Assembly: GCA_044892525.1 (NCBI GenBank)
Contig: CM097885.1
Span: 121,830,001-121,894,000 of the forward strand
Length of the DNA: 64,000 bases
Reading direction: 5' to 3'
DNA from: Schmidtea polychroa
Taxonomy: Eukaryota
Part shown: positions 32,501 to 52,437 of the stretch, one piece after another
Layout of the letters: the number at the start of each line of letters is the position of its first letter
Position numbering within the stretch: position 1 is the first letter of the stretch
Translations under genes and position numbers: made by a program
The notes under the pieces: generated by a model
Seen by the model: only the letters and a program-made list of their open reading frames with translations
The model's database searches: none
Told to the model about the DNA's origin: nothing

Positions 32501-35500
32501 ATGAAAATATTACACAGTTTTGCGAAAGGGTTATCGTTTTTTTGAGATCTCATCTATTTTGTCGGCGATTTCATTTAGTTTGTTGTTAGGGAGTGCAGCT
32601 ATTATGTTGGAACATAGGGGTTTTGTTGATTTGACTCGGGATAGCGTTAAGGTTAATTTCGCAAATTCTAACCATTGTGGACTATTCCGTCATATCTGTG
32701 CGTCAGCGGAATTTTTTTCAGACATTTCTGAGTGGAAGAATTATGATTTTCTTAAATAAACACGTGTTGTCTTATATATCTTTTAGTTATTGTAAAAAAT
32801 TGGTTAAAATAATTTGGAACGCTAAACTAGGCTAAACTAATTACCTTTATCTTATCAACGATTTAACTCTTCGATACTTTTTTAAAAATATTCGTTCGTT
32901 TATCGAAATGTTCAAATTCTCTAGTTAGTTATATTTTAAGAATTTAATAAATAAATATTGAAACTCAGAAACTCAAAAAATTATATTTTCGAAGTAAAAC
33001 AAACTTATAAAGATGCATATCCATGGGATTTCCCATAATTTAAAAATTATTTTATTCGTCTTCAACATTTTATTTATCAACGGTAATCACTTTTCCTCGA
33101 AAAATACTATTTTTTGAATATTTAATTAGTTTTTAATTTAGACATTTTTGGATAACTCCAACAGTATGAATACTACAACTACTGATTGCATTTGTAAATT
33201 TAATATAATTAACATAATTCTCTTATTTCCAAATGGTTTTTCATTTCTAATATTGTTTGCAAATTGTCTCTTAAAATTTAATTGTTACACAAATGATGAA
33301 AATTTTGCAATTGTTTTTACATCCTTTTATAATAAGAGATATTTTAATCCACAATTTCTATAATAACAATCAAAAGGAAAATACTTAGAACAATTACATT
33401 CAATTTTATTATTTTATTTTCAAGAGATCTCTAATTTCCCAAATTCCATTTAAGACGTTCGCTGCCGAGCGACATTTTCACAAACTGGTGAAATTTATGT
33501 GCAAGATATTGAATCTTAATAATTTTTAATTACTTTATTATTTTTTAGTCAGTTTTTACGGCAATAACTTTTATGACACTACTTTTTTTAATCGTATGTG
33601 ATAATTAAAAAATGTTCTAAGACTTTACTGGTAGCTGGTGCCTAATACACCCATTCCTAGCTTAACAAAAATTCTTTTTACTAAATTTCACTAATGTAAT
33701 TGCAAAATCACATAATAAAATTTCGATTTACGAAAATTTTTTACATACATATTTTACATTTTTGAATTTATTTCGTAAAGCGAGTGATAGATGTAACCAA
33801 CTTCGACATACGAGTTAATTCATAGTCTGTCGTAAATGTGTTGGTCTTTGAAAACGTTTATTATTATACTAATTGATGCGTCAGTGCCCCAAAATATTAC
33901 AAATCCATAGCAAACTTTTTTCTGATATTTATTAGAGATTTTGATAGAATTACAAAATAGGAAAAATAATTGTTGAAGGCGTAAAATGATTGGGGTGAAA
34001 TAATTGTGAATGAATGGGATATTTGCCTGGAATTCGGTAAAATAAGAATGGAAGAGAAATGTTGAAAAATGAGAAGGGAACAGAAGAAAATCAATAAAAC
34101 AGATAATTAAATAAAAGGTCATTCTTAGTTAATAAGTACAAAAGGGAAAACAGAAAGCAAAACAAAGTTGAATTGACTAGTTATCTCGATGGCCTCCTCG
34201 AGATAGAGAGAGAAAAAACCCAGGGGAATCCGAGAAACTAGATTATGAAAAATGAATATATCTCTATTGGTGTCAGAGATTACTGAATGCCAATGGAAAA
34301 AAGCGGAAAATAAAGAAGGAATTATCAATAAGTGACATCAAACGGAAAAGTATAAAAACCGAACACAAAATGACAATAATGAGAAAAAATTGTTATTGAA
34401 AGTGAGAATTGCTAGCGAAAAGAGAGAATTATTGGTAAAGGAGGAAAATTGACACGAGACAGACTGATGATAAAAGAGAGAATTTGTTAAAGAGGAACTA
34501 GTGCATTGAACCAATAAACCAGGGGTAGTTTAGAAACTCAAGTTAAGTCAAAGCAACCAGATCAAGTTACCAATCGTAATAGTCAATAGGTCGTGTTCTT
34601 AAAGGATTGTCATTTTTTGTGCTATTCTTCCCCAAGGATTGTAATAAACATTTAAAACAGTTGAAGTGTATGAAAGTTAGTATCATTAATCAATAAAGTT
34701 TTGCGTGTTGGGATTGCCTTTTTCGTTATTAATAATACGCACGGAGTCAGATAAGTAATTGGCAGTTGACAGTCACCGACCAACTACAATAAACCCAACG
34801 GAATTTAAAATTAGAATTACAAACTTATTATTCATTTCACTCATTATACCAGCTAGGTAAGAAAATAAACAAATTAATATTGTTTTTAAAATCATTTTTC
34901 CTAAAATTTGTAATTCACTTAAATAGTTTTCAATTATACTGTTGATTTAAAAATATTAATTAAGGATATGAATTGTTTAATTAATTTATTAAAAATTACT
35001 AAATCATTGAATTTTAGAGCTTCATAATTTAGGATTAAATCAAATAGCGAACTCTTAAATGCTTTAGAAAATGAAATAACTAAATTGAAAATAGAAAATG
35101 GTAAGGTTAATCATAATTTGAATGTTAACAAATATAATTTAGAAGCAATTTCAAAAAATAATATTATTTTGAAATCCAGTAATACAGATCTCAGGGAAGA
35201 AACAGTAACAACTAACTTTTTTCAAAGTTATATTAACCTTTACACAGGAAAATCAAATACTTGAAATTAATAAATTGATCAATAATTTGACTGAAAGTAA
35301 AATTCAAATGGAAACTTTAAACGACATTATCAAGACTCTTGATGGTGAAAATGGAAATTACAAAGTTTATATAAATAATGGAATTTTAACATTTATTATT
35401 TTAAGGATTCCATCCAAAGATTGATTGAGGAAAAACAAACAATACACAATGAATGCAATGCAATTCAAAAAAACCTAATTGATACTCAAAATAAAAATAA

Positions 35501-38041
35501 GGAACTTGAGGTTGAATTATTCTATAGATTACATATATGTATATATTTAATTTTTGTGTTAGATCTCTATTATGAACTCAAACGCGCAAGAAAATAATAT
35601 TATTGAACAAAAAAATTCACTTATTAAAGATTTAGAAGAAAAGCTAAAAATTTTCCAGTAAAATTATTTATAATATAATATTTTAATACTTATCAGAAAT
35701 GATAATGACGAAATGAAACTCAGAATTGAATGTGTTGAACAAGAAAGGGAAAATTCTAAAACTTTTTTATCCTCATTGTCGGAAGAAAATATTGTATTAT
35801 CGAAAACTGTTGAGGTTTTATTTATCGTTTTATTTATAAGATACTAATATCAATCAAAACAGGAATTTAAAGCTCTATTGTTTTCACAAGATAAGGATTT
35901 ACAAATGGCAATTTCTGAGAAAAATGAATTGGTCAAAATTCAGAAAATTAACGAAGAGAAAATAAAAAATTTTGAAAAAAATACTTTTGAATTTGAGAAT
36001 ATTCTTTCTGAAAATAAATTTAAAATAACTTCTTTAGAAACTTTTGTTGATGATTTATCAAAAGAAAAACATAATATTTTGAAGTCTCGTGAAGATTTAA
36101 GGAAAGAATTAATGTTCACTTTAGAACAATGCAAGAATGAACATGAAATTGTTGAAAAAAAGAAAAACAAAGAAATTGAATATCTTAAAACTTTGGTGAA
36201 TTCCTTGACATTAGATTCACAAAATTTTACTAATAAATCCGTAACTTTTTTAAACTTATATCTGACTTTTTTACTTAAATTTAGAAAAGTAAATTGGGCG
36301 AAATTACATCTAAATTTAATAACCAAAAAGAAGAAATTGAAAAACTTGAAATTGATTTACAAAAAGTTAATGTCGAAAAAGTAAGGAAATTTTATTTTTT
36401 AAAACACTTCTGACTTATTTTAACTCTTTCAAGACTAGAGGGACATTATTTTCAGATCAATTGTCCCTAAAATTTCAGTCTTTAAAGGGTAATCTGTGGA
36501 ATGATATTATTGAACATATTTATGCTATGGTGGAGAATAAGGGTACTAATTTTGAAAATAAATGAATAAATAAATATTTGAATTGTATATTAACAATGAG
36601 ATTAACAGTGATTTATTAAGACAGAAAGAATTAGACTTTAATTTGGCCAAACGATTGTCTAATTTTGTTTTTACACTTGATTCTAAACTCATTTAATAAA
36701 ACTAAATTTTTTTCAACGCTGATTTAAAAAAGCTTTCTAATGTTACATTTCTAAATGAGTGTTTTCAATTTTCTTTTTGAGAACGACAAATCCATTTAAA
36801 GGAATTCAAAGATTCAGGTGTTCTGGTAAGGTTAGATTCTTTTCAACATATTTCACATAATATCCGTTCTCTTATTAACCCGTGTTCAATAAACCTTAAA
36901 ATTGTTTTCATATAATTTATTATTGCTAAAAGTTCAAAAAATCCATAATTCCAAAAAAAAATTTATATTATATTACATTATTTACATCATTACATTATTT
37001 ATTTAATTATTCTCCACCATAGCCCATATTTGTATATAATTAAATTAATATTATTTATGTTCGAAGGATCAAACAAAAAAGCTTTTGGATAGAGCAACTT
37101 TGTCAATAAATGATCTTTCCGAAAAACTTGTCAGTATGGTAAACATAAATTGCACTATATCATTGTGCTAATGTAAATATCATTTAGGAAAATGTAGTTG
37201 AAGAACTTGAAAGTTTGAAAAAGATTTTGAAAGCTGAGACTACTAAGTACGATAATGAAGTTGCGATTATGTCAAAAGAAATTGCTGAAAAAAATTCAAT
37301 TATTTCGAAATTAAGTGTGATTGAAATGGATTATACCAACCTAAAAAGTAAATTACTCTCAAACTCTCCTCCAATGTGCACTCAAATTCCAGAATATATT
37401 CAATTATCAAGTCTTGCAACTCCAAAAAGTCAGAAGCTTTCGACAAAATTAGAAAATTTCAATGAATTAACAAGTTTTTGTTCAAATGTTAGCTTAATAA
37501 AAATACTTTTTTTATTTTCTTGTTACTGATAGGTAACTATTTGTAAACAGACACCCCAGAAAACTCCAAAGGGAATATTGCGTCAACCTGGATCAGCAAG
37601 TAAAAGGCGAAAAGTAATATTCGATGAAAACGATCTAATTCAAACAAAGTTGGATATTTCTGACGAGTCGATCCATTCAGATGGTGTTGATATTGATTTA
37701 GAAAATATTGACTCTGTAAACAAAGAAAGTGCATCTATTATTGATAACTATAAACACAATATTATAATTGCAACTACCCCAAAAAAGCCATCTTCGGTTT
37801 GCAAATTGGTATAATTTACAATTTTATTTATACATTATTTATTTTTTAGAATTTAACCGATTCAAAAAATAATGGAAGAGTATATTTTTTGTAGTTTATT
37901 ATAATTTCTATATTAATTTAGTTAACCAATGTCAGAAAAACACCTTCCAAGGTTGTTTCAAAATTAAATGACAAACGCAAAAAAGATAAAGAAAATTGGT
38001 TTGATTCTGATAACTTTTTTGGATTCGGATTAGAAGCTTAA
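1515..38041 (+). CDS. SYCP1: Synaptonemal complex protein 1, 23 exons, about 1235 aa
   Basis: Hand-spliced GT-AG exons, all phases consistent, total 3708 nt: 1515-2347, 2388-2475, 2518-2583, 19190-19257, 22260-22333, 22377-22505, 22546-22619, 22660-22747, 22793-22887, 29046-29410, 35033-35100, 35143-35204, 35248-35364, 35406-35510, 35563-35657, 35697-35814, 35863-36240, 36285-36380, 37067-37129, 37188-37487, 37533-37808, 37850-37879, 37922-38041. Exons 2-5 give LKVLHMKLKIEAEKIQKWKENLEKQLFLKNQKLKESEKIIESLRTSNLEFQ...ENSRNLCQILK, matching the SYCP1 conserved motif (LYKEAEKIKKWK...QENRKIIEAQRKAIQELQ...ENNATRHLCNLLK). A long coiled coil and a basic TP/SP-rich tail ending WFDSDNFFGFGLEA follow. Confidence 0.9.
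2692..2873. repeat. Foldback/MITE-like element with terminal inverted repeat and two internal hairpins
   Basis: 22-bp perfect TIR AAGACTATAAATCAGTAAATAT / ATATTTACTGATTTATAGTCTT; internal inverted repeats at 2718-2729/2764-2775 and 2788-2802/2825-2839. Confidence 0.8.
3021..3152. other. Assembly gap (N run)
   Basis: Run of N bases inside SYCP1 intron 3. Confidence 0.99.
3153..3775. repeat. Degenerate repeated DNA-transposon end sequences
   Basis: Recurrent AAGTGA(T/C)CAGACGTCCCG...TGTCCCG motif near 3366 and 3716, with a partial copy near 3160-3195; resembles hAT-type MITE termini. Confidence 0.4.
5111..7413 (-). mobile_element. Buster-family hAT transposon B (GTF2IRD2/SPIN-like transposase, frameshifted)
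   Basis: TIR CAGGGATGCACA / TGTGCATCCCTG; perfect 8-bp TSD TTCTAGTT (5103-5110, 7414-7421). ORF pieces RKFNNCW, FSLAVDESTDISSTAQL, FHCIIHQQNLC, YYCEVRWL, FGSTYVCEQTFSVM. Confidence 0.92.
8939..9252. mobile_element. hAT (Buster/Charlie-type) MITE
   Basis: Right TIR TTGAGAACCACTG, degenerate left TIR CAGTGGTGCTCCTCAA; perfect 8-bp TSD CCTTAAGT; near-identical partial copy at 63250-63519. Confidence 0.9.
10100..10317. mobile_element. pogo-type (Tc1/mariner) MITE
   Basis: TIR CCGTATATACTCGCGTATAAGTC / GACTTATACGCGAGTATATAC flanked by TA; one arm nearly identical to the end of the pogo element at 57250. Confidence 0.85.
11160..18121 (-). mobile_element. hAT transposon C (ZMYM1-like transposase), split by element D
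   Basis: Perfect 8-bp TSD GTTACATC (11152-11159, 18122-18129); degenerate TIR; shared subterminal AGTGCCTAGGGCCTACGAA at both ends. ORFs 16479-17186, 12400-13281 and 11373-12458 join into one transposase (DSTPDISHMDQ, SQSYDNASNM, CAAHSLNLVG, SETRW, EGERSFSKLKRIKN) with a frameshift near 12400-12460. Confidence 0.92.
13246..16557 (-). mobile_element. hAT transposon D (ZMYM1-like transposase, frameshifted) nested in C
   Basis: Perfect 8-bp TSD ACTCTAGG (13238-13245, 16558-16565); TIR CAGGGCCGGATTTA with degenerate partner TAAATCCGGAATAG; GGGCCCC subterminal repeats. ORFs 15159-15959 and 13460-15118 carry DSTPDISHKDQ, SQSYDNAMNM, SKTRW, GERSFSKLKLIK. Confidence 0.92.
19670..19879. mobile_element. 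pogo-type MITE (diverged)
   Basis: CCGTATATACCCGCGTATAGG ... TATATGCGAGTATATATGG flanked by TA; same TIR family as 10100-10317. Confidence 0.75.
19896..22001 (+). mobile_element. Chapaev3-like (CMC group) DNA transposon remnant
   Basis: N-terminal FCYICG...DQDKKWDPHVSCGTC and VWR.PTNHITDCYFC; C-terminal SIKLHFLHSHLDFF...SEEHGERFHQDI...RYQGRW; begins with CACTG; several frameshifts. Confidence 0.65.
23063..25545 (+). mobile_element. Decayed hAT transposon (ZMYM1-like)
   Basis: Fragments CRAQCYDNTAVM, VKRESETHWSSR, IASCERSFSKLKLILSYLRASMG; 3' subterminal GGGCGCAAA repeats and TAACTACGCCTTTG end. Confidence 0.8.
23538..23571. repeat. (AAT)n microsatellite
   Basis: Direct AAT run inside the hAT remnant. 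Confidence 0.95.
25704..27205 (+). mobile_element. Internally deleted Buster/Charlie hAT (ZBED8/FAM200-like)
   Basis: TIR CAGTGTCGACAACC / GGTTGCCCGACACTG; perfect 8-bp TSD ATTTAAAC. N-terminal AKKKKPHAEAEEIVLPA and C-terminal LLPFGSSYLCEQGFSAL survive; the catalytic middle is missing. Confidence 0.9.
27623..28560 (+). mobile_element. piggyBac transposon remnant
   Basis: TTAA-CCCTTT left end; transposase fragment RPNCIAEYNKCMGGVDLCDMLM. Right end not found. Confidence 0.75.
29640..32770 (-). mobile_element. Decayed Gypsy LTR retrotransposon internal region (gag, protease, RT, RNase H)
   Basis: RT FSKIDLQKAYHQI; RNase H FFSKKLT...YSTFDREPLAI...KIFTDHKPL...YVAGKSN; protease region AIIGADFL; gag CYFHNKFG..KC. 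Many frameshifts. Confidence 0.85.
33839..34800 (+). mobile_element. Solo LTR related to the UBL/env LTR family
   Basis: Starts TGTTGG, ends AAACCCAACG; 33900-34200 aligns clearly with 46190-46480; carries CACGGAGTCAGA near its 3' end. No clean TSD. Confidence 0.65.
36523..37024. mobile_element. MITE in SYCP1 intron 18
   Basis: 17-bp perfect TIR GCTATGGTGGAGAATAA / TTATTCTCCACCATAGC; 8-bp flanks CATATTTA / CATATTTG (7 of 8 match). Confidence 0.65.
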
Positions 38042-39299
38042 AATATGGCATTATTCCCTGTTAATCGTTTATCAAATTTATTTTTGAATTTTATTAATTG
38101 TGTTGTTAAAATTTTGTTCAGATTTTTAAGTTTAAAAATCGATTTTTTTAATTGTTATCCTGATATTATAATTAATATAAAAATTTTATTGAATTTTTGG
38201 GTTCTATTTTGGGTTTCCCGATATTCGGATTTGGATGAGATTGTCAGCAGTTCCACACTGCCTTTGAAAACTTTTCATTGTATATTTATACTCAAGCTTC
38301 TGACTCATACAAGTCTTTAAGGTAGACCGCCAAACATTATTGTCAAGGTAGTAGATTGTCGGAAAACGATGTAAAATAAAGAAATCTCTATAATAGGTGG
38401 AATATAATTATTATATCTCTATTATATCATTGTATTTTTATATTCATTATTGTATTTTACTAAATTATTGATTACAAATGCAATGATTTGATTAATATTG
38501 ATGAGCTCTGGATGATGGGTGGTGTGAAATTTGATAAGTAGATGTAGTATGTTGTACAATGAGTACAATTGTATCCTTATTTAAAGAATGACTGTAAATA
38601 TGAATGAAACTGACAGCTTCGAATAATTAGAATATATTTAAGGTATTTAGGTACGATAAATTACATAAAATTCTATATACTAATTTGCGGATGACACATT
38701 CTTTTAAAATAATTTCGTATAATCGTTTGCATTTGCAAAATTTCTGGGTTCAATCGGGATTTAGAAAATAACAGTGAAGAGTCTTTGGTTTTCGAATTAG
38801 AAAACTGCGATTTAGTTATGGCCTAAACCGTTTCCGAAAGTGACGAACTATAGCTCAGCGATATTGATAAGTATAAACTAGGCTCTGAATATTCAAATTT
38901 TGCATTAAGACAAGAAATTCCATTCACAGAGCTGTCCATTTTCGTACTGGAAGAAGTAATGGAGTTATAGCATGGTACAATTAGTTTATTGAAAGATATT
39001 AAAGAAGTTTTGAACACATAAATTTATATATAATTTTAAATTTCCGTTTTGGATTAGTCAAGGTAATTAAAAATGGTGCAAAAGTTGTTTAAATTTGATA
39101 TATATTGTTGGTTATTTATTAAAAATTCGGGTACTAGTTTTGGAATCCTCGGTGTCCTTATTCAAATATATCGAAAAATCCAGCACAATAATGTTTATTC
39201 AAAGTACTTCAACTTCAAATTATTAAAACAAATTATATCCACACGATATTCAAATCTAACAATTTTCAATAACAATATTTATGTGCACAGTTTTAAATT

Positions 39300-39690
39300 A
39301 CAATACTATTCTCTCGTGCTGGAATAAGTCTTCTGACAGGAAATCTTCTTTCTGTACTGACTCTGACTCTACGTGCTCTTTATTTAAATTATTAAGATAA
39401 AACACTTAATTAAATGTCAATAAAATTGATACAAAGTTCCCGATTATATTCTTTTTGTTCTGCACTCTTTTATAAAAATTAAAAGCGGGTGACCCTAAGG
39501 GATATACTGCTTTTATCAGATTTGACAATGATTTTTCTCTTTCCAATTTGAATTGACAATTCTAAACCTTTTTGTCTTTAATCACGATATCGTAGTTTGC
39601 TCTCTTCGACCAACTGGCATTTCCCCTACACTATCCGTTACTTTTATAATATTGTTCATCTCGCTTTATCGGATAATTGAATTAGCCATC
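39300..39690 (-). mobile_element. Diverged LTR fragment of the same family
   Basis: Minus strand reads GCACGTAGAGTCAGAG, the motif found in U5 of the other LTRs; similar strand-biased composition. Boundaries uncertain. Confidence 0.4.
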
Positions 39691-39725
39691 ACCCAAAGTT
39701 GTGGAATACTAAATAATTGAACAGG

Positions 39726-40690
39726 TGTTGGGTTCAATAGGAACCGGAACCAAAAGTTTTGGAATTAAATAATAATTAATTAAAAAATAGTATTTAAAAA
39801 TTACCTAAAATAGAAAACAATTACTAAAATTAGAATTAAAATATAAATAGTAATAAACAATTACTAAAAATAGATTTGTAACAAAAATAGTAATTGTTTA
39901 AAAATATATAATAAAAATAGTAATTAAATAATTACTATTAATAGATTAAAATAAATAAAAAGGTATAAATACCAGTCGAAAAGTTGAGCTCAGGTACGGA
40001 AAAATAGGACGCGACAGAAAAGATTGAGAATTAATTGAAAGAAACTGTTATAAATAGATAAAGATTTTCTCGCATTTAGTGGTAGAAAATTTACATTGGA
40101 ATTTATTTCTAATTAATAACTGCAAGTCTGACTTGATATTCAATTATCGATTGGGAAAAAATTAACAAGTATTTTGGGATTTTCGCATCATTTATACAAT
40201 AACTTAACTCCAATACCTATTGGAGTATTAATTAAAGAAAAAAAGGAGGATAGATTTTTAGCAAGCTCAACAACCAATCTGTGGTTTATTTTGCTCTATT
40301 TTTGGAATATTAGATAGTTAGTATTATTATTGTTAACGTCATCACATATTTTTGTAGCTGTTTCGTTTCAAACAAAATTTAAAGTGTTAACCATTTTCTC
40401 CGTTGACACTATCGCGGTTAAAATTTGGTAAACATCCCTATCTCTTTCGTTCACCTATATCGGGCTGTTGGCGCATTTGGGCCAGCCTTGATTCTTAGAT
40501 ATACTCTTTAGGGCGGTTTGTATAACCGTTTTCTGTTCTTTAGGGTGCAGCTAGGTTGTTTTTGTATTATAAACAATTGTGTATAAATTATTTACTTTTA
40601 ATAAATATTTAAATTATATTCGTTATTTATTTACCTAGAGTCAGATAAACGTTTTGTATTAGTTCGACTACATACCCATCGAACCTAACA
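39726..40690 (+). repeat. 5' LTR of element 1 (965 bp)
   Basis: TG...CA ends with 9 of 10 inverted terminal match; directly followed by TTT and the PBS. Confidence 0.85.
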
Positions 40691-40693
40691 TTT

Positions 40694-40711
40694 TGGTGAG
40701 CCCGGCGTGAT
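40694..40711 (+). promoter_or_regulatory. tRNA-Trp primer binding site
   Basis: TGGTGAGCCCGGCGTGAT matches the complement of the canonical eukaryotic tRNA-Trp 3' end (ATCACGTCGGGGTCACCA) at 16 of 18 positions. Confidence 0.8.
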
Positions 40712-40777
40712 AAAATTATCAGCGGTTAGAAATTGAAATAAAACAAAATAGCGTTAGGAACTAGAGCCAGAGTAAAA

Positions 40778-41368
40778 TTGGATAATCAAATGGCAGAAGA
40801 AGCTAATGTAAACGCATTTGCCAGATATCGCGCTCTGCCCGTAAAGGTATTCAGCGGTGATCCGGGAGAATTCCCAGAGTTTATGTCTGAATATTATCAG
40901 ATGGCAAAGGCATATGCTTATCCAGATAATATCATGATACAAAGGCTACCCATATATCTGAAGGGGCTGGCAAGAGAAAAATATAATGACATTACAGCAT
41001 TACCAGTTGCTCAAGTACCAAAAACATGGGCCGAAATGAGAGAACAAATGACTGTTCGAATATTGCTCGGAGATGCGGGAAGAATATTTAGACAACAATC
41101 TTACCATCGAAAACAAAATGCCAATGAACATGTGGGGGAATTTGCACACCAGTTATCATTTATTGCCGAAAGTGCATTTGGTCCGAAAACCACATGGGCA
41201 AAGCCAACAGAATTGTTAGTTAAGGATCAACTATGGGCAGGACTTACTCCTACAATGAGGAACGCCCTAATACTAAACACTAGTGATGATTTTGATGAAT
41301 TAACACGGAAAGCTGTCGTAATTGAAAGCAGCTTGGAAAAGTCAACCATGTTCCTTGTAAACAGTTAG
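40778..41368 (+). CDS. Gag capsid-like N-terminal part of element 1
   Basis: LPVKVFSGDPGEFPEFM...RLPIYLKGLAREKY...YHRKQNANEHVGEFAHQL is typical Gypsy-type Gag and aligns with the ORF at 50667-51167. Separated from the downstream frame by a stop and a frameshift. Confidence 0.8.
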   Translation: MDNQMAEEANVNAFARYRALPVKVFSGDPGEFPEFMSEYYQMAKAYAYPDNIMIQRLPIYLKGLAREKYNDITALPVAQVPKTWAEMREQMTVRILLGDAGRIFRQQSYHRKQNANEHVGEFAHQLSFIAESAFGPKTTWAKPTELLVKDQLWAGLTPTMRNALILNTSDDFDELTRKAVVIESSLEKSTMFLVNS

Positions 41369-41381
41369 AGAACACCGGTAG

Positions 41382-44300
41382 TGTTTCAATTGCCATAGAA
41401 AAGGGCATATAGCGAAAGATTGTACCAGCAGGAAAATTATGGACAATCGTAAAAGTATACAATGTACCAAATGTGGATGGAATAACCACGGTGCGGAAAA
41501 CTGTAGAGTACAGAATTTGCAATGTGAGAAATGTAAACGAAAGGGACACGTTGCTGCAGTCTGTAAGACTAGAAGCTCTCAGAACAGCAATAATTTTAGT
41601 ACGGTTAAAAGAGATGATGTAAATTCATCGGGAAAGATAAAATGTCACGGATGTGGGAAATTCGGACATATGATGAGGTCATGTCCTCAGAATCAGAGTG
41701 GAAACACGGGTCAGTTCAATAAAAATACCGATAAGGGTAATGTGAACAAGCCTAAGACGACTTTTATGGTTAATCAGGATCAAGGGTTAACTTATCTGCA
41801 ACAATTGGAAATGGAAATCCAGGAGGAAAAGAATAGGTTGGCTAGATTGACCGACCAAGAAGGCACCATCTTTAAGGTAGAAGTTGGAAGAGATGAATTT
41901 CTTAAAAAAAAGGACTCCATTAGAAAGGACCTTCAGGAAACGGAATCAGAGGAGAGTTCCGATGATGAACCTAGTATGGCCACCATACTAAGCGAGTTCG
42001 ATAGAACCTTTCCAGGGAAAGCAAAGGTAAAAGGAGGGTCAGATACCCTAACAAAATGTTTAAAACTGGTGGATTCCAGATATGAGTACCAGCAGAAGCT
42101 GGCCAGACAATTGGAAAAATTGACAGAAACAGAGATTAAAATTCACGAAATCGATACAGTAGTAAAACTGATATCGCAGGTCGAAGATGATCCAAAGTAT
42201 CATAACGACACGTACAAAATCCTAAGGAAATTAGGAAAACTCATGGAACATGAATGGGACCTCCAAGATGCCCAACTCAATATAAAACTCCCACAGGATA
42301 AAGAGTATAATCTCGATATAAACTTAAGAAATCGAGCCGATAAATTAACGGAAACATTGACAAGTATTAAGCATCAAGGATATGACTTATACTTATGTGG
42401 AATAAAATTAGAAGCAAACCAAACACTTCTACAGAACGGGATACTCCCAGGTAGAGTGACGAAGCTCACAGCAAAGAGTGCACCGAAGCCAGTGGCAGTA
42501 ATGGATCAATATAGTGTATTCTTGATTACTCAGATGGAAATAGAGAGATTGGAGGAAACTCAACAATTAACCCAGCGACTAGGGTTAGAATTGCAGAAAT
42601 CACCACGAGATGGAGAAACTATAAAGGAAATACTTGACTGGATGTTAGTATTACGAATACCAGTAGATTTGTTGGAAGCAATAATTCCACTTATTCTACC
42701 AGTGGTAAAGGAAACAAGCCCATTCCAGACGCAAATAGAAGCACTGATGAGGAAAAATGGGAAAGCTATCCGAAGTCAGCCTGATAGACAAGGCAACATT
42801 AATCTAGACGTGCGAATCATGGGAAAAGAACCATTAACAATGATTTATAATTGTTATATCAAGGTTAAAATATTAAGGAGAGATGTGATTGCCACCGATC
42901 AAACTACAGGTATATTCCTGATAATTGTCCATGGTAGGCAAGTGGATGATCACGAATATCTAGTGGATGTGGGTTGTCTACCGTTAGCAACAACCACGGT
43001 AATGATCATCCCAGTAACTCCACCCGAGTCCCAGTGGTCATTAATGAGACTGCCAGATATAGCAAACGAAATTGCGGAAGAAATCGAGGAAATAAGGCTA
43101 GAGGAAATTAATCCCTGTCAAATGGTGGACATTGACGAGGAAGATTACTTCTCAGAGTATGTCAGATTAAACCCAGGAGAAACAAACCTAGGAGCTACTA
43201 CGTCACAAGCGGTAACAAATCCGGAGACAGAAAAACCCCCGGAGAAAGTGAAAAAAGATGGACGAGGACGTCCTAGAAAGGATCAAATGAAACCTCCACC
43301 CAACGAGCAGTTAAATCCGGAAACGATTCGGAAAATTCAGCTAAAAACATTAGCAGGGATAGCTCAAGAAGTGGACGGCCAGGCGGAAGATGAGACAACG
43401 CCAGAGAGGTCGTTATTGTGGCAACGTATACAACAAATGATCGGGATTATCAGGCCCGAATGGAGAATTCCAAAGATCAAGGGAATCGAAGTAAAGAAGA
43501 TAACGAAAGAGGTTAAGAAGACAATGAATAAAGTATCCAAAGACGTATCAACTGGAAATATTCAGGATGCCATAGAAGCATTCGTACAGCAAGGATTAAC
43601 AAGAGGGAAAGTGGTAACATCGCTTTCACTGTTAATTCAACATGCCTTAGTCCGAGCAGGGGACGATAAAAAACTTATAGAACGAGAAATCGATCAAATA
43701 GTCGAAATGGTAGATTATTACCTTGAGGTATGGATGACCGTAAACAAATTTTGGGAAAAGGAAATGATCCCAAAACCACGATATGAAGTCGTGGAAGAAG
43801 CCATAGATAATGGTAGTCCAGGCACAGGAAACATGACAAGCATGATCCTGATGTTTCTAGTAATGATGGGCATATTAAAACAAACAAATTCACTAACAGT
43901 ATTTGACTGTGGAAATCCTAAACTATCTCGGATATATTCGCTAGTAGATGCAATTGAGTGCAAAGAGGCGTATCCAGAGAAGGTTCATCAAGGGGAAAAG
44001 GTAGAATATTACGTCTACCAAGAGAGTGAATTTTATAGAACCACGATAAAGGAATGTAGAATTCAGAGAGCTACATTTGAATATTATTGCGGTAGTAATA
44101 GCTATTCTGCTTTTCTATCTGCAACATTAATACCAAGGCCAGTAAACATAATGCCCGAAGATTGCCTAGATGCATTTCGAAAAGGAAGCGTGAGGATAGA
44201 TAACGAGGTATCAATCTCGGCAGAAATTGGGAAAACATTGGGAATAACAATCACTCGAGGAGGAACAATTGCCTCAGGTGGAACCGGCAAAGGCAGAAAG

Positions 44301-45482
44301 AAAATTCGCGGTAGTAATTTAGTTTCCTATGTGGTAGACATAGAAGATTACTCAGTAGAGCTACGAGAATATGAGGGAACATTCGATGTGGCCACAGGAA
44401 AATTGATGGCACATCCGCAATGCAATGCCAAGTTCGGTAGTTGTAAAACGGGAACCACTACATTAATTTACGAACAAATGAGAGATCATTGTGAGTTGGC
44501 TTTCCTCAAGAAAATTCCTTTTAGAAAATTAAATGGAACTAAATACCGAGACTCCCAGAATCCAGAAAAGGTGTGGGATAAAGCAAAAACGTTGAAGAAA
44601 ATCAACAAACAAGAGAAGAAAGATATCGGAGAGGAAAACACACCTCTAGTGTTGATATTGGAAGAAGAGACGGACGCAATTCGATTCTTCCGAAAAGATA
44701 AAAAGACTAAATGTGGGAAAAGAGTATACGAGACGAACTACAAAGGAATTTTCCTGTCAAGAGAATATATTCGAAATTCCAAGATCCTACATGTAAAGGA
44801 TATCAAAATCACGAATTATATTAATAATAAAGTAGATTATTTATATCATGACCTGCAAGGACAAATGCAAGATATGTATCAAGAGGTGATACTAAACAAT
44901 TGCAAGCTTAATCGTGAAATAGTCCGAAATAGATTAGCAATATCTATTGTTAACCCAGAGTTGGTTACTCCAATGTTATTAGAAGATGGGATGTTTGGCA
45001 GAATCATGGGAGAAGCTATATATAGCTATGAGTGTAAACCAGTGGAAGTACAATTAGCCAGATTTAATCAATGCACTCTGGAACTGCCAGTATCCTATCA
45101 AGGAAAATTGAGATTTGTCATGCCAGTAACCAGAAAGTTACTTGAAGAAAACGCTAAACCTCAACCAGCAATATGCAACCCGGCAATATCACCGTTATAC
45201 AAAATAAATGACATGTGGATATCTTTGCCGGAAAGAAAACCATCTACACAACGAGTAGAGACCTTGGAGGTAACTAAATTAAAGGATAATATGGGATTCA
45301 AGTCATTAGATGAATTAGCTAAAGGAGGGATTTACACTCCCGATGATATCGAAGAAGCAAGAAGGACACTGCTATTTCCACAAATCAGAGACAGTGGTAT
45401 CACGGAAATTATAAGAACAATTTATTATGATATTTTAATACGACCAGAAAACCAATTTATTATTTGGTCCGGAACACTATAA
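41382..45482 (+). CDS. Polyprotein: 4 CCHC knuckles, UBL-helical-UBL, AT-hook, signal peptide, chuvirus-like glycoprotein ectodomain
   Basis: Frame open from 41382 (CFNCHRKGHIAKDC, upstream of the annotated ATG at 41439), then CTKCGWNNHGAENC, CEKCKRKGHVAAVC, CHGCGKFGHMMRSC. UBL-like segments at about 42270-42476 and 42795-43013; GRGRPRK at 43260-43280; hydrophobic MILMFLVMMGILKQTNS followed by LTVFDCG at 43893. No protease, RT, RNase H or integrase motif. Confidence 0.8.
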   Translation, partial: CFNCHRKGHIAKDCTSRKIMDNRKSIQCTKCGWNNHGAENCRVQNLQCEKCKRKGHVAAVCKTRSSQNSNNFSTVKRDDVNSSGKIKCHGCGKFGHMMRSCPQNQSGNTGQFNKNTDKGNVNKPKTTFMVNQDQGLTYLQQLEMEIQEEKNRLARLTDQEGTIFKVEVGRDEFLKKKDSIRKDLQETESEESSDDEPSMATILSEFDRTFPGKAKVKGGSDTLTKCLKLVDSRYEYQQKLARQLEKLTETEIKIHEIDTVVKLISQVEDDPKYHNDTYKILRKLGKLMEHEWDLQDAQLNIKLPQDKEYNLDINLRNRADKLTETLTSIKHQGYDLYLCGIKLEANQTLLQNGILPGRVTKLTAKSAPKPVAVMDQYSVFLITQMEIERLEETQQLTQRLGLELQKSPRDGETIKEILDWMLVLRIPVDLLEAIIPLILPVVKETSPFQTQIEALMRKNGKAIRSQPDRQGNINLDVRIMGKEPLTMIYNCYIKVKILRRDVIATDQTTGIFLIIVHGRQVDDHEYLVDVGCLPLATTTVMIIPVTPPESQWSLMRLPDIANEIAEEIEEIRLEEINPCQMVDIDEEDYFSEYVRLNPGETNLGATTSQAVTNPETEKPPEKVKKDGRGRPRKDQMKPPPNEQLNPETIRKIQLKTLAGIAQEVDGQAEDETTPERSLLWQRIQQMIGIIRPEWRIPKIKGIEVKKITKEVKKTMNKVSKDVSTGNIQDAIEAFVQQGLTRGKVVTSLSLLIQHALVRAGDDKKLIEREIDQIVEMVDYYLEVWMTVNKFWEKEMIPKPRYEVVEEAIDNGSPGTGNMTSMILMFLVMMGILKQTNSLTVFDCGNPKLSRIYSLVDAIECKEAYPEKVHQGEKVEYYVYQESEFYRTTIKECRIQRATFEYYCGSNSYSAFLSATLIPRPVNIMPEDCLDAFRKGSVRIDNEVSISAEIGKTLGITITRGGTIASGGTGKGRKKIRGSNLVSYVVDIEDYSVELREYEGTFDVATGKLMAHPQCNAKFGSCKTGTTTLIYEQMRDHCELAFLKKIPFRKLNGTKYRDSQNPEKVWDKAKTLKKINKQEKKDIGEENTPLVLILEEETDAIRFFRKDKKTKCGKRVYETNYKGIFLSREYIRNSKILHVKDIKITNYINNKVDYLYHDLQGQMQDMYQEVILNNCKLNREIVRNRLAISIVNPELVTPMLLEDGMFGRIMGEAIYSYECKPVEVQLARFNQCTLELPVSYQGKLRFVMPVTRKLLEENAKPQPAICNPAISPLYKINDMWISLPERKPSTQRVETLEVTKLKDNMGFKSLDELAKGGIYTPDDIEEARRTLLFPQIRDSGITEIIRTIYYDILIRPENQFIIWSGTL

Positions 45483-46120
45483 AGAAGCAGCAAAGAACGT
45501 AATGATGAAAATATGGGAACGATTTACCAATTTTGGTATTTTCGTCGCCGGATGTTCAGGAATCTACGCAGTATTTGTAATTTTAAAGCTGATAATTACA
45601 CAACTAATGTCAACATATAGCATATTCAAAATTGGGAGATGGTATTGGAAACTGCTATTAGGATTATGTCCTATGTGTGCAGAGTTTGCATTATTCAAAC
45701 ATCACAGAAAAGAAATTAAAGAAATTAGACAGAAACATTTGGTCAAGCATGAAGTAATTGGAACAGAAATGGAGGAGTATTCTAGTTATCGGGACGATAA
45801 CAATTCAAAGGGAGGAGGTAATGGAGGCTCTCGTGAAACATCTTCAAGACAAAATCAACCACGAAAACAGAACTACAACAAAAAACCGACTCACCAACAA
45901 AGAAAATCGAGATTTAAGGAATATCTCCCTCCATATGACCAATCAAAGGAAATCTACGTGAGAAGACAGTCATCAGAAGGAGAATATGACAGTTCCGACC
46001 AAAAATTCGACATAAGATCACCCAGATTCAAGAGAAGTCCAAGATATGTACAATTGCCAACTTTGAGGAGTTTACCATCCGCACCAAACGATGGGCGGGA
46101 ACATTCAAGGGAAACAACAA
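45439..46120 (+). CDS. Env membrane-proximal region, transmembrane anchor and cytoplasmic tail (frameshifted from the main ORF)
   Basis: LLFGPEHYKEAAKNVMMKIWERFTNFGIFVAGCSGIYAVFVILKLII fits the membrane-proximal plus TM pattern of chuvirus-like glycoproteins; the frame runs into the 3' LTR remnant. Confidence 0.7.
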
Positions 46121-46146
46121 CGACTACATACCCATCGAACCTAACA

Positions 46147-47542
46147 CAGGTTTCCTCTCGGTTTTGTTCAAAGATCTTGCTTCGCTAATTCAAAACTAAT
46201 CAACTTTATTGATTTTGTTGAGGATACCTAAATAATAAATTTAAATAATTAATAAATGCGTAAAATGATTGGAGGGAAATCATAATAAATGAATGGAGTG
46301 TTGTCCTAGAGCACAGTAAAATAAGAGTAGAAGAGAGATATTGAAAAATCAGAAGAACACAGAAGAAAATCAATAAAAACAGACAATTAAATAAAAGAAA
46401 GTCATTCTTATTTAACAAGTACAAGCATAAAAGAAGCAAAACAAATTTAAATTATCTTTTTATCTCCATGGCCTATTTGAGATAAGTGTTGAGGTCCTTA
46501 AATTAAAATAAATTTAAATGAAATTTAGGTTAATAATCTAAATAAAAAGTAAGTGAAGAAAAAAGACAAATAAAAGCGTGATCATGCACAGAATCGATAG
46601 TAAAGGAAAGTGTGATTCAAGCAGTATTAGAAAATGCCAAAAGCAATTACGAAAGGCAAGAATCCGAAAATCCGAGAAAAATCAATAAATTGTAAAATTA
46701 TCGAAATCGAATTGGGAAAACGGGACAGGTATAGAGTAGCTAATGGTCAACAAGATGATGGTTAGGGATTTATCAGAAAATGGTTAGGAAGGGTCGAAAA
46801 GCATCCAAATGTGTAAAAACAGAAAATGTTGATTTATTAATTAATTGGCTAATAGAAAACCTGAGCTAATGGGAAACCCGAGCCAGTGAGAACCCGAGAG
46901 ATGAAGGAAACCCGAGCTGGGTAAACAAGAAGAAAAGTAAACAGAAGGAAGATTTGGGCCCATTAGCTTGACACAATGATTAATTGGAAAAGAGCAAGGA
47001 GAAGATAGTGCGTGTAGAAAGGCCGGAAGGGCCATTAATTATCTTAGCTCGTTGGACCATTATGGGTGACAGCCGAAGCAGATACGTGGAAGCAAATGTC
47101 AAATGAAAGATTGGCTTGGCAATAACCATTTATCATCCCGATTTCGAGAAGTATATAAGGAAAGGGAGAATCAGAGCAAATCGGCATTTTGCCTCAGGTT
47201 GGGTAAGAAGAAACTGAGCTTAGGAAAAGGCGAAAACGAATCTAGATTAAGGAAAAAGAAGAGATAGAATAAGAATAAAAAGCGTGAAAAGGATCAAATC
47301 AAAAAGAGAAAAAAGGAAAACGTTGGTCAAGAGAACCTAAGAAACTAAAAGGTGAATATTATCTTTATCAAAGCATCAACACCGAGCGGAGAACCAGTCA
47401 AACGGAACTTTGATTATTAATTGTAAAGTGGTGATAAAGGATTGTGAATTTATTATTTCAATATACGTTGGGTCGTTATTGTTTGATTTAAAGGACACGA
47501 GGAGTCAGAGGGAACCGACTTAAAGTAATCTAAAACCCAACA
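46147..47542 (+). mobile_element. Solo LTR of a sister family, interrupted near its left end (about 39700) by element 1
   Basis: Ends AAAACCCAACA; aligns with the inverted LTR at 51327-52215 (AATATACGTTGGG...ACACG.GGAGTCAGAG...AAAACCCAACA and the AACCCGAGC repeat block) and with 33900-34200. Confidence 0.7.
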
Positions 47543-47629
47543 TAAGGATAAAGGAACATGGGAAATCCGAAAGATGAGATCGTCAAAAATATATAAGTAA
47601 TGATATTACTTTATAGGTCAAAGACCAAA

Positions 47630-48855
47630 TGTGAAGCAGTTCAGAGTATATTGCGTAATTCAATACAATGTGTTAGTTATTACGCAATATACATTACTAT
47701 TTAAGAGTGATCACTCTATGTTAATGTAAATAAATCTTTAGATGGAACCAATTGTTGTAACTGGTGACCACGCCGAAAATGTTCACACAATGACGACTCG
47801 AGGAGAAGGGAAAAAGTCTGCAAGAGTCTCACTACCGAAACGTGCGCAAGAACTCTTGGATATGGAAACTAGAAGATACGACTGCAGATGTACCAAGGAA
47901 GCTGAAAAATGGATATAGGCAATTAATGATTGGATCGCTAGGAATGATTTGAAGAGGACAGAAGCATTTGATTTTCTCCTTTGCGATGAAGTGGCTACGC
48001 TGTGGAAAAATTTCAAAACAGAAAAAACAACAGATAAAACAGCTAAAGAATGGTTTTCCGAAACATTTACAATTAAATTGACTATTATAGACAAGATTAA
48101 TGAACTTGCTGCAATTAGACAAGAGGAAAATGAGAGATATTCTACCTTCGAAATCAGGGTATTAAAATTAGTGAGTGAAGTTATTAATTCAGGAATGAGG
48201 GTAGAGGAGATTGCCAATGAAATTATAACTGGACGAGTCAGAGATAGAAGATTAAAGGATGTTCAAACAATAAAACCAACGATGACAGCAGAAGAACGAA
48301 ATCAACTGGCCAAAATTTACGAGAAAGTGGAATCAAAAGAAAAGACAGAAGAAATTATGGTAATAAAGAAGAGTAGTTACGCGGAAGCAACAAGAAGAAG
48401 GAATTCAGAAACGTTTGCAAGAGAAACAAATGGAAGTAACACCAATGTATTAAGAAGCCAAGGAAATTACAGAAGAGAGAATTTACCAGATAATTCATAT
48501 AACAGAAATAACGAAATGAATCATACAGTCGAATGGAATGTGCAGAGAAGGACACCGATGGTTTCACTTAAACACATCGCCAAAAGATTATAAAATCGAT
48601 CTCGAGACCTTCCTGATCCAAGAAACGGCTAATTAAAGCCAGGCCAATGTTTTTTCTGTGGAGAATATTGGCATAGAAGATATGAATGTCTACTAAAAGA
48701 TAAATGTTTGATATGTTTTCCGTGATTGTTATTTATTAAGAAAGAAAGAACAACAGAACTATGAGAAAAAGGAAATGATAGCTTGTGTGCATGACGAAGA
48801 AAACGGAAGAAATTACTCGTATGATGCAGAAACAAGAGAATCAATTAATGATTAT
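47630..48855 (+). mobile_element. Truncated LTR retrotransposon 3 (unrelated family): short LTR, PBS and gag pseudogene
   Basis: About 130-bp LTR-like segment, PBS-like TGGTGACCACGCCGA at 47762, gag-like frame from ATG 47790 with internal stops and knuckle CFFCGEYWHRRYEC at 48648. Confidence 0.6.
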
Positions 48856-48859
48856 GCAA

Positions 48860-51800
48860 TTCATGATGTGGAAACTGAAAAAATTACTTCATGTAAAATT
48901 TTGTTTTTTGACCCAAAACCTTTCAACTCAGCTTCATTTAGCTCCTCAGATAATTCAGTTTTAATTACTCCAATCTCATCATCTTCCTCTTTTACGATTC
49001 TAGGCCAGTAAGTTACAATAACCTCGTTTTCAGACATTTCATCCTGTGGCTTCGTTGCATAAACATTATTTATGTAATTTGTATTAAATCCGCAATTAGC
49101 TAAATTTTCGTCATCGTCTAACTCTATTCCTTTGTAAGTCAGTACAATAATCCCATTATTTCCCATTGTTTCTGCAGCTTTTTGTCGTAATTTTGACACC
49201 TTTACGCTCCAGTGCTATTGAAAGTATTCAACTTTTCCATCAATATTTGGAGCTATCATTAATGATTTCGAATTACACTCCGGTTCTCTGTAATCATATT
49301 TTAAGTTCCGTAGAATTTCCTTTAATCTGGTTTGATATTTCGTTTTTTTATGAATATGCGGCAAAATACGTTCGAACAGCTTCTCTTTATCTTTTCCATT
49401 CATTTTTGAACTCATCACTAATTCAAGACATTTATTGATCTCGTCCTCATCAACGATATATAACATGTCTCGCAAATTCCTTAGGGTTTCGTTCCAATTT
49501 TTAAAATCTGAATTTGAATGATTAAAAGTATCCAAAATATTTACCTCATTTTTCAATCAGGGATTAAACCACAATCTACCAAGTATTCCGCATCCTTCAG
49601 TTTTCCCATTTACCGTTGTGTCAATTTCACGCTACCTTTATTGTATTTAGCCAGAATAAGCATTGTCAAATCTTTGATTTGTCCATAAGGATTGATAGAA
49701 AATTGAGCTTTAATACCATTGATGTCTGTGGTCTCCACGATAATATTATCCAAATCGTTTTTGGATCTTAATGCTTTTCCAAATGTTCTCATTAATTTAG
49801 CAATTTCCTCATCTTGGAGTATGCTGTAAAGCTTAGAACATAAGTTCAATGCACTTTTCAATTTCTTATGACTAAGTTGGATCTGACTTAACTACGTAAC
49901 CCACTCTTTCAATCTTGGATTGTTTGTTTCCATATTTTGAGCCATCTTTCCATTTTATTTAATAACAACGTAGCCTTTTGTTCAACAAGTCATTTTTTAC
50001 TTTATTAGCAAAGTTTTCCGAAATATTTTCGTACGCCATATAAGAGTCTGCTCCGTCATCAAATTCAATTTTCGACATCAACTTGTCTAATTTTTTCTCA
50101 TTTCTCGAACTTCATTTTCCATCTTTTCTTTAAAGTCGTCTTTTTGAGCATAAGCTACATTGGCATTGATTGATTCATCTTGAAATTTACTTGATTTCTT
50201 GGGATATCTAGAAGGTGATATAGTTCTTGAAAAACAATTTCTGCTAATGTGGCCCATTTTTCCACATCGATAACATTCAATGTCACCATTGTTTGGCTTA
50301 TTTTCAGTAAATCTATCTTTGGGACTCATATTTCTACCATTTCTGAATCAACATTGATTTGAATAATATCCAGGCTTCTTGCAAAACTCGCATACAATAT
50401 TATTCAATATCTCGTTTATTTGATTACTAAAAGTTGCTTTATTAACTTCCAATTTATTACCTAATCTTGGAGAGCTGTTTGATTTAATTGGTTCTTTTGA
50501 TTCCCATTGATTCTTTACTGGAGTTATCGCCCTTTCTCTTTTCTCGGCATTTGCGGCAAATACTTCAGATTTTCTGGTACTTTTTAAATTCAATTCAATT
50601 TTCATTGCTTTCTTCACGAGTTCATCGAAATTCGAAAAATCTACGTAGCATAGTGCTTTTTTTATTTCAGGATGGGCTCGTTATAAATTGATCTTCTAGC
50701 AGTTCTCTGACTTGTTTCACCATCTCCACTTGTTCAGGCTTTGCTTCGAAGGCTTTGTCTGCTAAAGTCGTTAAATGGAATGCGAATTCACTCAACGATT
50801 CATTTGGATTTTGTACTCTGGCATAAAATTTTTGTCGCATTATCCTTTTAATATCGCCTCCCACCAATTTCATTGCCATAGCGTCTTCGAGTTTGGCCCA
50901 ATCATTTCCAACTGTCTTTCTATCTACTTGCTGCCAAGCTTCTCTAACAGCTCCTTTTAAATAGAGTGGGAATCTTTGTACCAATATTGATTGTGACCAC
51001 CCATAGGCCGAAGCGTACATATAACAATCGCCCATGAAATCGGCAAACTCAACCGGGTCTCCTCCATACTGATTCACCGGTAATTTTTGACAACTGGCAA
51101 AATCTATCATCTCTGCGTTCTCTCTGGCCATCTTTACTTTTCGGTTTCTCAAATTGTATTCACTCATTGCTAAATATTAAAATTAATAATCAATAATTAC
51201 TACCTCTTTCAAATACCCCGATTTCCAATTATTTTCAAATTTTTATTACTTTAATTTTCTTCACCTCTTTTCACTCTTCAATATTCGCCCACCAACGTTT
51301 GATCACGTCGGGCTCACCAAAATATATGTTGGGTTTTATGATATCAAAATCAACCGTTGGTTACTCTGACTCCACGTGTTCCAAAATCAATAAACACAAA
51401 CTCCCAACGTATATTTGTTTTATAACAATTCACAACTCTCAACAATTAATCACACTGTCGGTTAATCACAATTCTCACACAATTTCAGATCGGACTCCGC
51501 TCTGGAAGGTCTCAACCTCGTACGATTAAAAAATTAGGTTTCACCTTTTGATTTAGTTCCACTCTCTGATCCAATCTCCTTTGACGCTTCTTGTCTAACT
51601 CTTCAGTTTTTCCTATAATTCTTTTCTTCTTATATTCTATTCCTTTAACTCCTAATGTCGTTTTATTCTTCCCTACCTAAGGCTATTGCCCATTATGTGA
51701 ATTTTAAGTTTCCTTATAATCGTTGTAATTGCCCCATTTTTGACCTAATTGGTTTTGACTTCTTTAGTTATCATTCCCTAATTGGCTATTTCTTTTGACC

Positions 51801-52215
51801 ATCTTCGTAATTCCCCTTCTTTTGTTTACCCTTGTTTATCCGGTTGTTTGGATAATTGCCCTCGAGTGCCTCGTTTTTTTACCCTTCCAAATTTCCGTGC
51901 TCGGGTTTTCTTCATCGCTCGGGTTATCCATTGGCTCGGGCTTTCCATTAGCCAATTAATTAATTAATTAATATTTTACGTTTTTCACATTTGTCTATTT
52001 TACGACCCTTTCTACACATTTTCTAACAATTTCTTCTTCACTATCCCCTAATCTACCTCTCTCCCGTTTTCCAGCTTCAATTTCGATAACTTTTCACATC
52101 ATTCCACTTCCTCAGCTTTGCACATTTTTCCATTTTATGTCTGATTATAACCCTTTTATAGTTCTGTTTTTATCATATCTTTCTTTACATTACTTCTCTG
52201 CTTGACCACCCTTTG
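48860..52215 (-). mobile_element. Truncated LTR retroelement 2, same family as element 1: LTR, PBS, gag, knuckles, UBL-helical-UBL
   Basis: LTR 51327 to about 52215; gag 50667-51167 homologous to 40778-41368; knuckles CEFCKKPGYYSNQC and CYRCGKMGHISRNC; UBL-like segments 49556-49747 and 49053-49265; several stops and frameshifts. Confidence 0.8.
51302..51319 (-). promoter_or_regulatory. tRNA-Trp primer binding site of element 2
   Basis: Minus strand TGGTGAGCCCGACGTGAT matches the complement of canonical tRNA-Trp 3' end at 17 of 18 positions. Confidence 0.85.
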
Positions 52216-52437
52216 TAGTGAATTAAAAATTTCAAAAATTAAAAACTTAAAGTGAATCTGAAATTTGATCAAAAAAAAATTACTTTATTTCTATAAAATA
52301 GAATTCTTTATTTCTATAAAAACAGAATGCTTTATTTAATTGTGTAAAAAAAATTTAGTTTTAAAAATATAATAAATTTTGAATTTCTTGAATATAATTA
52401 TCAATTGGTTTATTCTTAAATATCAATATCCAGAAAG

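Follow-up and report, generated by a model that had tools for sequence, protein, structure and literature searches.

The stretch of DNA analysed here (the window) comprises 64,000 nucleotides (nt) of the planarian Schmidtea polychroa (GenBank assembly GCA_044892525.1, contig CM097885.1, positions 121,830,001 to 121,894,000 of the forward strand). It holds two broken retrotransposons with a primer-binding site (PBS) of the tRNA-Trp type, which we call element 1 and element 2, together with two solo long terminal repeats (LTRs) and one decayed LTR (Table 1). Our subject is a short motif of the unique 5' region (U5) of these LTRs, GAGTCAGA, which is complementary to the anticodon arm of the primer tRNA. 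The initial annotation placed it at five sites, 34744+, 39362-39369(-), 40638+, 47502+ and 51365-51372(-), and we found it at all of them; the longer form reported for element 2, TGGAGTCAGA, occurs at a single site in the window, 51365-51374(-). Four LTRs have a visible end, and the end of the motif lies 49, 45, 33 and 38 bp from it, in agreement with the claimed 33-49 bp. Of the five LTRs described as related, that of the copy at 39362 is the decayed LTR, which has no visible end and whose homology to a family LTR is limited to 39726-39801 (blastn). Altogether the window contains seven copies of GAGTCAGA, with about 1.06 expected by chance; the two additional ones lie outside LTR ends, at 48235+ inside a gag-like open reading frame (ORF) and at 38299-38306(-).

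The tRNA genes that we recovered from the host genome bear out the proposed partner: host tRNA-Trp contains UCUGACUCCA, the exact complement of the motif. A pattern built from the motif and the PBS gave 806 genome matches, and those listed form a tandem array identified as tRNA-Trp(CCA) by ARAGORN. The PBS is a contiguous 18-nt match to the 3' end of this tRNA, perfect in element 2 and with one G-U pair in element 1, so that both are of the tRNA-Trp type as had been claimed. Five host tRNAs (Trp, Pro, Lys, Arg and Leu) were recovered, and specificity is judged among those; tRNA positions follow the standard numbering. As an observation in its own right, host tRNA genes are arranged in long tandem arrays of a single type. 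The 806 Trp matches have a 284-bp period, the 4082 pattern matches of the Pro array a 475-bp period among the matches listed, and the Lys, Arg and intron-bearing Leu genes are arranged likewise. Arrays of tRNA genes run from C4:55.02 Mb (L001-L012), and further sites are C1:130.9 Mb (L225-L230), C4:76.66 Mb and C2:73.97 Mb.

The bearers of the motif are Ty3/Gypsy LTR retrotransposons with an env gene, related to Burro; the copies in the window are broken. Ten copies taken from elsewhere in the genome show long frames with CCHC, protease, reverse transcriptase (RT) and integrase motifs, near-identical LTR pairs and a polypurine tract, with LTR pairs of 0.9-1.1 kb in five and a total length of about 13-14 kb in three. 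A mononegavirus-like fusion protein follows gag, and env-family matches, from a search that covered high-scoring copies, occur in frames of up to 3334 aa. The RT sequences fall into two env-bearing Gypsy clades that are 50-53% identical to each other, identity within clade 1 being 85-88%. Giant elements with a BIR domain, LTRs of about 5 kb and a Pro-type PBS are their RT sister group (52-53% identical to clade 1). The relevant forks of the RT tree stand at 94/93 and 94/92, and clade 2 sits on a long branch. In planarian Burro elements, too, env is described as lying between gag and pol (PMC6431247). Burro/GYPSM1 is like the motif-bearing elements in this mononegavirus-like env and in its RT, 52-53% identical to clade 1, whereas the Burro-like elements differ in their LTRs of about 5 kb, their Pro PBS and another, GC-rich U5 fold without the motif. 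Assignment of the motif bearers to Burro proper was rejected on their LTR length, on their total length and because the BIR-bearing giants form a separate RT group. An RT-profile scan of viral_contigs gave 68 pattern matches, none of them a relative.

The motif is real and selected. The initial annotation was right to call it conserved, but the invariant part is GGAGTCA, not GAGTCAGA: the former is the majority form in 8/11 U5 clusters and the latter in 5/11. GGAGTCA, the complement of tRNA-Trp nt 29-35, is found in exact form 30-62 nt upstream of 873 of the 982 exact Trp PBSs genome-wide. The clusters were built from 73 distinct Trp loci. Most of these come from the initial 100 of the C1 listing, of which we took the first 30 and another 40 chosen for flank diversity; the two of the window and others in the fetched stretches were added. 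The exact core is present in 59 of these loci and, with at most one mismatch, in 70; among the 7-mers of the last 250 nt, the core and the hairpin arm TTGTGTT are shared by the most clusters (8/11 each). Depending on the family, it is extended at one or both ends to a tRNA match of 8-14 bp. In the comparison with flanking U5, flanks are pairable with the tRNA in 6-7 of nine clusters at offsets -2, -1, +7, +8 and +9, and in 2-3 of nine at -3 and +10. This test was anchored on the core in nine clusters, leaving out the singletons Trp9 and Trp10; part of the conservation of its core columns stems from the anchoring itself, and clusters within one clade are not independent. Neighbouring intramolecular helices, read by eye and with no control count, compensate between families with the core constant, as would be expected if the core paired with a host RNA that does not change. 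In five elements we found no conserved complement of the core within the element itself. Aligned contigs differ at ten places within 51230-51480, none of them within 51365-51379, which are too few to serve as evidence.

A fixed protein site would be equally invariant, and the core might be an inherited protein-binding or structural RNA or DNA signal (a polyadenylation downstream element, a packaging or integrase-proximal signal, or a transcription-factor site) whose match to the tRNA is coincidental. The core is one base off the AP-1 consensus; most other Trp-primed elements do without it; there is a single clade-level contrast; and the U5 regions of Burro contain the similar word GGAGTAG in 7/10 clusters. 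We nevertheless regard such a signal as unlikely. The five full LTRs contain no exact AP-1 site, and the core lies 300-500 bp from TATA boxes and 41-57 bp inside the LTR end, presumably beyond the usual attachment (att) site. Its extensions track the tRNA on either side, and a second, colinear tRNA complement is present. In Burro the word is 190-230 nt away from the PBS on its 5' side, pairs with GCTCAC within its own hairpin and varies in two clusters; because of this folding we do not treat it as the same signal, although it may be homologous to the core. The Burro-like LTR ends (e.g., L203:4200-4466) have a conserved multi-stem GC-rich fold that includes the bulged GGAGTAG/GCTCACC hairpin.

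To assess which tRNA the U5 regions match, we took one representative per cluster and compared it with four host tRNAs in windows of 12 nt, using 60 dinucleotide shuffles. For Trp-primed U5s and tRNA-Trp, the anticodon arm is the sole peak (10/11 clusters with p<0.05, mean z 4.1-4.3), and no D-arm signal appears; Pro-primed U5s reach at most 2/10 clusters. The Burro-like group has a Pro-type PBS that matches host tRNA-Pro, and is represented here by 32 loci in 10 clusters, with RT checked for one cluster. None of the 32 has the core in its last 130 nt, and the motif is likewise missing from the eight Leu-primed and the six TGGCGACCA-primed loci; it thus does not persist in elements with these three types of primer. 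The Pro-primed U5s show a weak signal with the D arm of tRNA-Pro (3/10) that is not established. From its reading of a bipartite primer-binding system, the initial annotation expected the motif to switch to match a new primer. The complementarity, the conservation and the restriction to Trp-primed relatives all stand, but this prediction failed: a complement of the Pro anticodon was found in 0/10 Pro clusters, the sole sister group tested, and the decisive swap was therefore not seen.

The reading of the initial annotation is partly supported, with pairing and any part in primer selection or activation being putative. The word bipartite understates the arrangement, since a third block matches the variable loop and T arm. 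This second block, 5' of the motif, is the complement of tRNA-Trp nt 43-56 in a register that differs by family. In clade 1 it reads GAACAC(G), GGACACG, GACACGC or AACACGC and has a fixed position 0-3 nt from the motif; in clade 2 it lies 5-60 nt from the motif, and its words are either of the ACGCAACC type (10-12 bp) or of the ACGCA type (7 bp). The block was spotted post hoc in these data; with 300 shuffles it reached p=0.003 in 3/4 clade-2 representatives (3/10 overall), and five control segments gave 0-2/10 significant. Cofolding, with a program that omits the PBS helix and pairing inside a closed hairpin, predicted both contacts in 8/10 representatives. As a separate observation, all Trp clusters have a U5 hairpin at the terminus that overlaps or crosses a U5-leader helix spanning the PBS, as a pseudoknot or a switch; their sequences differ per family yet stay complementary (e.g., window 51290-51410(-) and 40655-40735(+)). 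The motif might itself form one side of a helix or switch internal to U5, in which GAGTC would pair with GACTT in competition with the U5-leader helix. Such a helix is predicted in clusters Trp1b, Trp2 and Trp6, but the partner strand is different or missing in Trp3, 4, 5, 7 and 8 and the core never covaries, which makes this highly improbable as the explanation of the motif; an internal helix may instead be a way to mask the motif until the primer binds.

The position of the motif points to U5. In the five full LTRs the core is 3' of AATAAA, which in clade 1 lies about 50-70 nt upstream of the motif, and three clade-1 LTRs have a TATA-like box 356-485 bp from the LTR end. With boundaries placed from these signals, the motif is probably not upstream of the transcribed region: the polyA signal precedes it, and the TATA-like boxes lie 300-500 bp to its 5' side. 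An initiator reading was rejected on the same distance; an initiator-like word overlaps the motif in 1/5 LTRs. The placing of the R/U5 boundary from such signals leaves room for pairing with tRNA-Trp at another step or in another form: with a second tRNA or a 5' fragment in dimerisation or packaging, or, if the motif lies in R, in minus-strand transfer. The U3 region in human immunodeficiency virus type 1 (HIV-1) carries a tRNA-like transfer motif. Ty3 uses distant blocks (PMC5371799). We hold pairing of this kind to be quite unlikely, as the fixed spacing to the PBS and the place 3' of the polyA signal fit contact with a PBS-bound primer.

Based on these findings, we propose that the U5 complement probably pairs with the anticodon arm of the element's own primer tRNA-Trp in an extended initiation complex, resembling the A-rich loop and primer activation signal (PAS) contacts of HIV but with 9-14 bp in place of a loop-loop contact. 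The tRNA would then likely be gripped not at a single place but at two or three. Annealing of the PBS to tRNA nt 59-76 would free the 5' strand of the T stem, which the T-arm block could capture; the motif would enter via the anticodon loop (GGAG on CUCC) and displace the weak anticodon stem. The terminal U5 hairpin and the PBS-spanning U5-leader helix may place the blocks beside the PBS. Such a complex could make primer binding more stable or choose the primer, and could set the timing with which minus-strand synthesis begins, and RT would have to strip the tRNA-motif complex about 40-60 nt after initiation.

Several of our results weigh against this proposal. The motif also fits tRNA-Arg(UCG), which has the same stem (8/11 clusters); an exact pattern for an Arg(UCG)-type PBS had 0 matches. 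Besides the Pro-primed U5s without a Pro-anticodon complement (0/10 clusters), the Leu-primed families (8 loci) and the six TGGCGACCA-primed loci lack a complement of their own anticodon, and a single primer change has been sampled, on a tree with the forks and the long branch described above. The GGAGTAG look-alike of the Burro clusters belongs here as well. The T-arm block of clade 1 taken alone is not significant (0/6 representatives), tRNA-Trp has the best cofold energy of four tRNAs in 6/10 representatives only, and the core is not predicted to be more exposed than the remaining U5 (0.18-0.65 unpaired). Most Trp-primed elements of other organisms lack the motif: it is present in 0/8 viral_contigs loci, which are avian-retrovirus-like, and in a set of nine avian-retrovirus-like loci none has the anticodon-arm block. 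A metagenome scan gave at least 109 loci, of which 84 with a GC content below 58% and 100 nt upstream formed 64 clusters; among the matches listed, two of these score 10 or more upstream of the PBS (null mean 0.12, 8 shuffles). Because so few do, the motif is not general to Trp priming, although it may recur; downstream of the PBS, again among the matches listed, 2/64 clusters score 10 or more (null 0.00).

The arrangement can be compared with several known systems. HIV-1 and HIV-2 have contacts with the anticodon and the T arm of their primer, and avian sarcoma-leukosis virus (ASLV) with the T arm; in HIV-2, anticodon and PAS contacts are described as simultaneous (PMC3185550, PMC13191261). 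As in HIV-1 (MAL) and HIV-2, U5 here has, 5' of an 18-nt PBS, a complement of the primer's anticodon region and a candidate complement of the T stem on its 5' side. The differences are that our elements are Gypsy retrotransposons using tRNA-Trp rather than tRNA-Lys3, with contacts that are predicted, that they have an 8-14 bp, G/C-containing match running through the 5' anticodon stem where HIV has an A-U loop contact, and that their two U5 blocks are adjacent and colinear. The role of the anticodon and T-arm contacts in HIV-1 initiation is disputed, the evidence being isolate-dependent (PMC3185550). The ASLV U5-TpsiC interaction (a proposal cited in PMC3185550) shares with our elements the primer tRNA-Trp, a U5 hairpin, a U5-leader helix and a T-arm word: in 8/9 of the avian-retrovirus-like loci, the PBS is preceded at 31-39 nt by CGA(A/G)CAC, whose A/G variation is also seen in clade 1. 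What these loci do not share is the anticodon-arm block of the planarian elements. Ty1 and Ty3 are likewise LTR retrotransposons with extra primer contacts (PMC5371799), but theirs is a short split PBS that binds the T and D arms of tRNA-iMet, whereas here a full 18-nt PBS is joined by an anticodon-arm complement. A bipartite PBS of the Ty1/Ty3 type is ruled out by the contiguous PBS and the lack of a D-arm signal in the Trp U5s. Helenus and Ajax (PMC10886601) have tRNA-like promoters and not complements, and are not relevant. We found no prior report of the motif in the literature searched, which omits most subscription papers; the supplements of Grohme et al. 2018 or Repbase may describe the families. 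New here is the second block 5' of the motif, with its putative pairing to the variable loop and T arm, significant in clade 2 only.

A possible origin of the motif is suggested by elements of other organisms. In L337 and L363 the PBS continues through the complement of both T arm and variable loop; it ends at GGAGTCAG(A), and the planarian motif has this 3' limit too, suggesting that the motif arose by read-through capture. We tentatively extend this to a scheme that we find doubtful when all its parts are taken together: U5 would hold a rearranged, tRNA-derived 'anti-primer' which, together with the PBS, would engage 33-44 of the last 50 nt at the 3' end of tRNA-Trp in pairing and melt the anticodon arm; it would have been captured from a read-through primer copy stopped at G26, presumably modified; and it would recur in L292, L337 and L363. 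A read-through copy might also have been captured once and be a mere relic that no longer pairs, its remains owing their survival to drift or to some other cause. The colinearity of both blocks with the tRNA complement, the shared limit in L337 and L363 and the extended tRNA copies 5' of a PBS in L355 and L371 would all fit. Drift, though, cannot hold seven invariant bases at 50% RT identity when the LTRs no longer align, and capture covers the origin of the motif and not its retention; we judge a relic very unlikely, while noting that such an origin is compatible with pairing to the primer. Among side observations, the Trp PBS continues as tRNA complement beyond position 58 in L337, L363, L291, L355, L371 and L373, reaching the anticodon arm in L337 and L363, and some of these are tandem PBS units. 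L292/L392, an unplaced element of another organism, has a 13-bp anticodon-arm complement 127 nt before its PBS (null mean for its score 0.00 in 8 shuffles of 64 clusters), and L354 has matches on both flanks of its PBS.

A clade of about a thousand copies that keeps a long anticodon-arm complement over deep divergence is comparative evidence for such contacts from a metazoan Gypsy lineage, and its families offer a natural series of registers. If true, tRNA capture would be a general route to primer-specificity determinants, locking retroelements onto one tRNA.

Table 1. Motif-bearing LTRs, elements and predicted tRNA-Trp complements in the window
Feature	Position	Strand	Remarks
Anticodon-arm complement GGAGTCAGAT	34743..34752	+	Old solo LTR, end at 34800
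AATACGCA, matches T-arm side	34734-34741	+	Old solo LTR ending at 34800
GAGCACG (39372-39378) and GAGTCAGA (39362-39369)	39362..39378	-	Decayed LTR
5' LTR of element 1, alignable part	40180..40690	+	Clade 2, cluster Trp5; U5 hairpin at end
Anticodon-arm complement GAGTCAGAT	40638..40646	+	U5 of element 1
PBS of element 1, tRNA-Trp type	40694..40711	+	One A>G, giving a G-U pair
Body of element 1, with a broken gag, zinc knuckles and a fusion glycoprotein of Monjiviricetes type (PF24664)	40742..46146	+	
Remnant of element 1 3' LTR end, 26 bp	46121-46146	+	
T-arm complement GGACACG	47493..47499	+	One G-U; same solo LTR as GGAGTCAGA
Anticodon-arm complement GGAGTCAGA	47501..47509	+	Solo LTR 46487-47542, cluster Trp2
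Element 2 leader and broken gag region, truncated	48886..51301	-	
PBS of element 2	51302..51319	-	Perfect 18-nt complement of host tRNA-Trp 3' end
5' LTR of element 2	51327..52213	-	Clade 1, cluster Trp6; far end inexact
Anticodon-arm complement TGGAGTCAGA	51365..51374	-	U5 of element 2 5' LTR; 10-bp match to tRNA-Trp nt 27-36
T-arm complement GAACACG (tRNA nt 50-56)	51375..51381	-	Directly 5' of motif; putatively PAS-like

In the motif copy of element 1 the initial G is missing, as is the ACGCA block found upstream in its family. The body of this element has a match to PF24664 at 41382-45479 (E=5e-67) and none to RT or integrase, so it retains env but no pol; the 26-bp remnant of its 3' LTR is identical to the 5' copy (40665-40690). 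L047 has a comparable LTR remnant of 169 bp, and both are internal deletions ending within the 3' LTR. Adjoining the solo LTR of cluster Trp2, at 47596-48883, is a piece (91% to L130) from a Gypsy element of the AGTT type that is not related to the others. Elsewhere in the window, 34800-38100 holds a coiled-coil host gene of several exons that has TP-K motifs close to its end and resembles synaptonemal complex protein 1; the single ORF of it that was scanned had no Pfam match. Two tandem remnants of hAT transposase lie at 11373-15965(-), and an intronless fatty acyl-CoA reductase-like ORF (NAD_binding_4) lies at 52420-53412(+).

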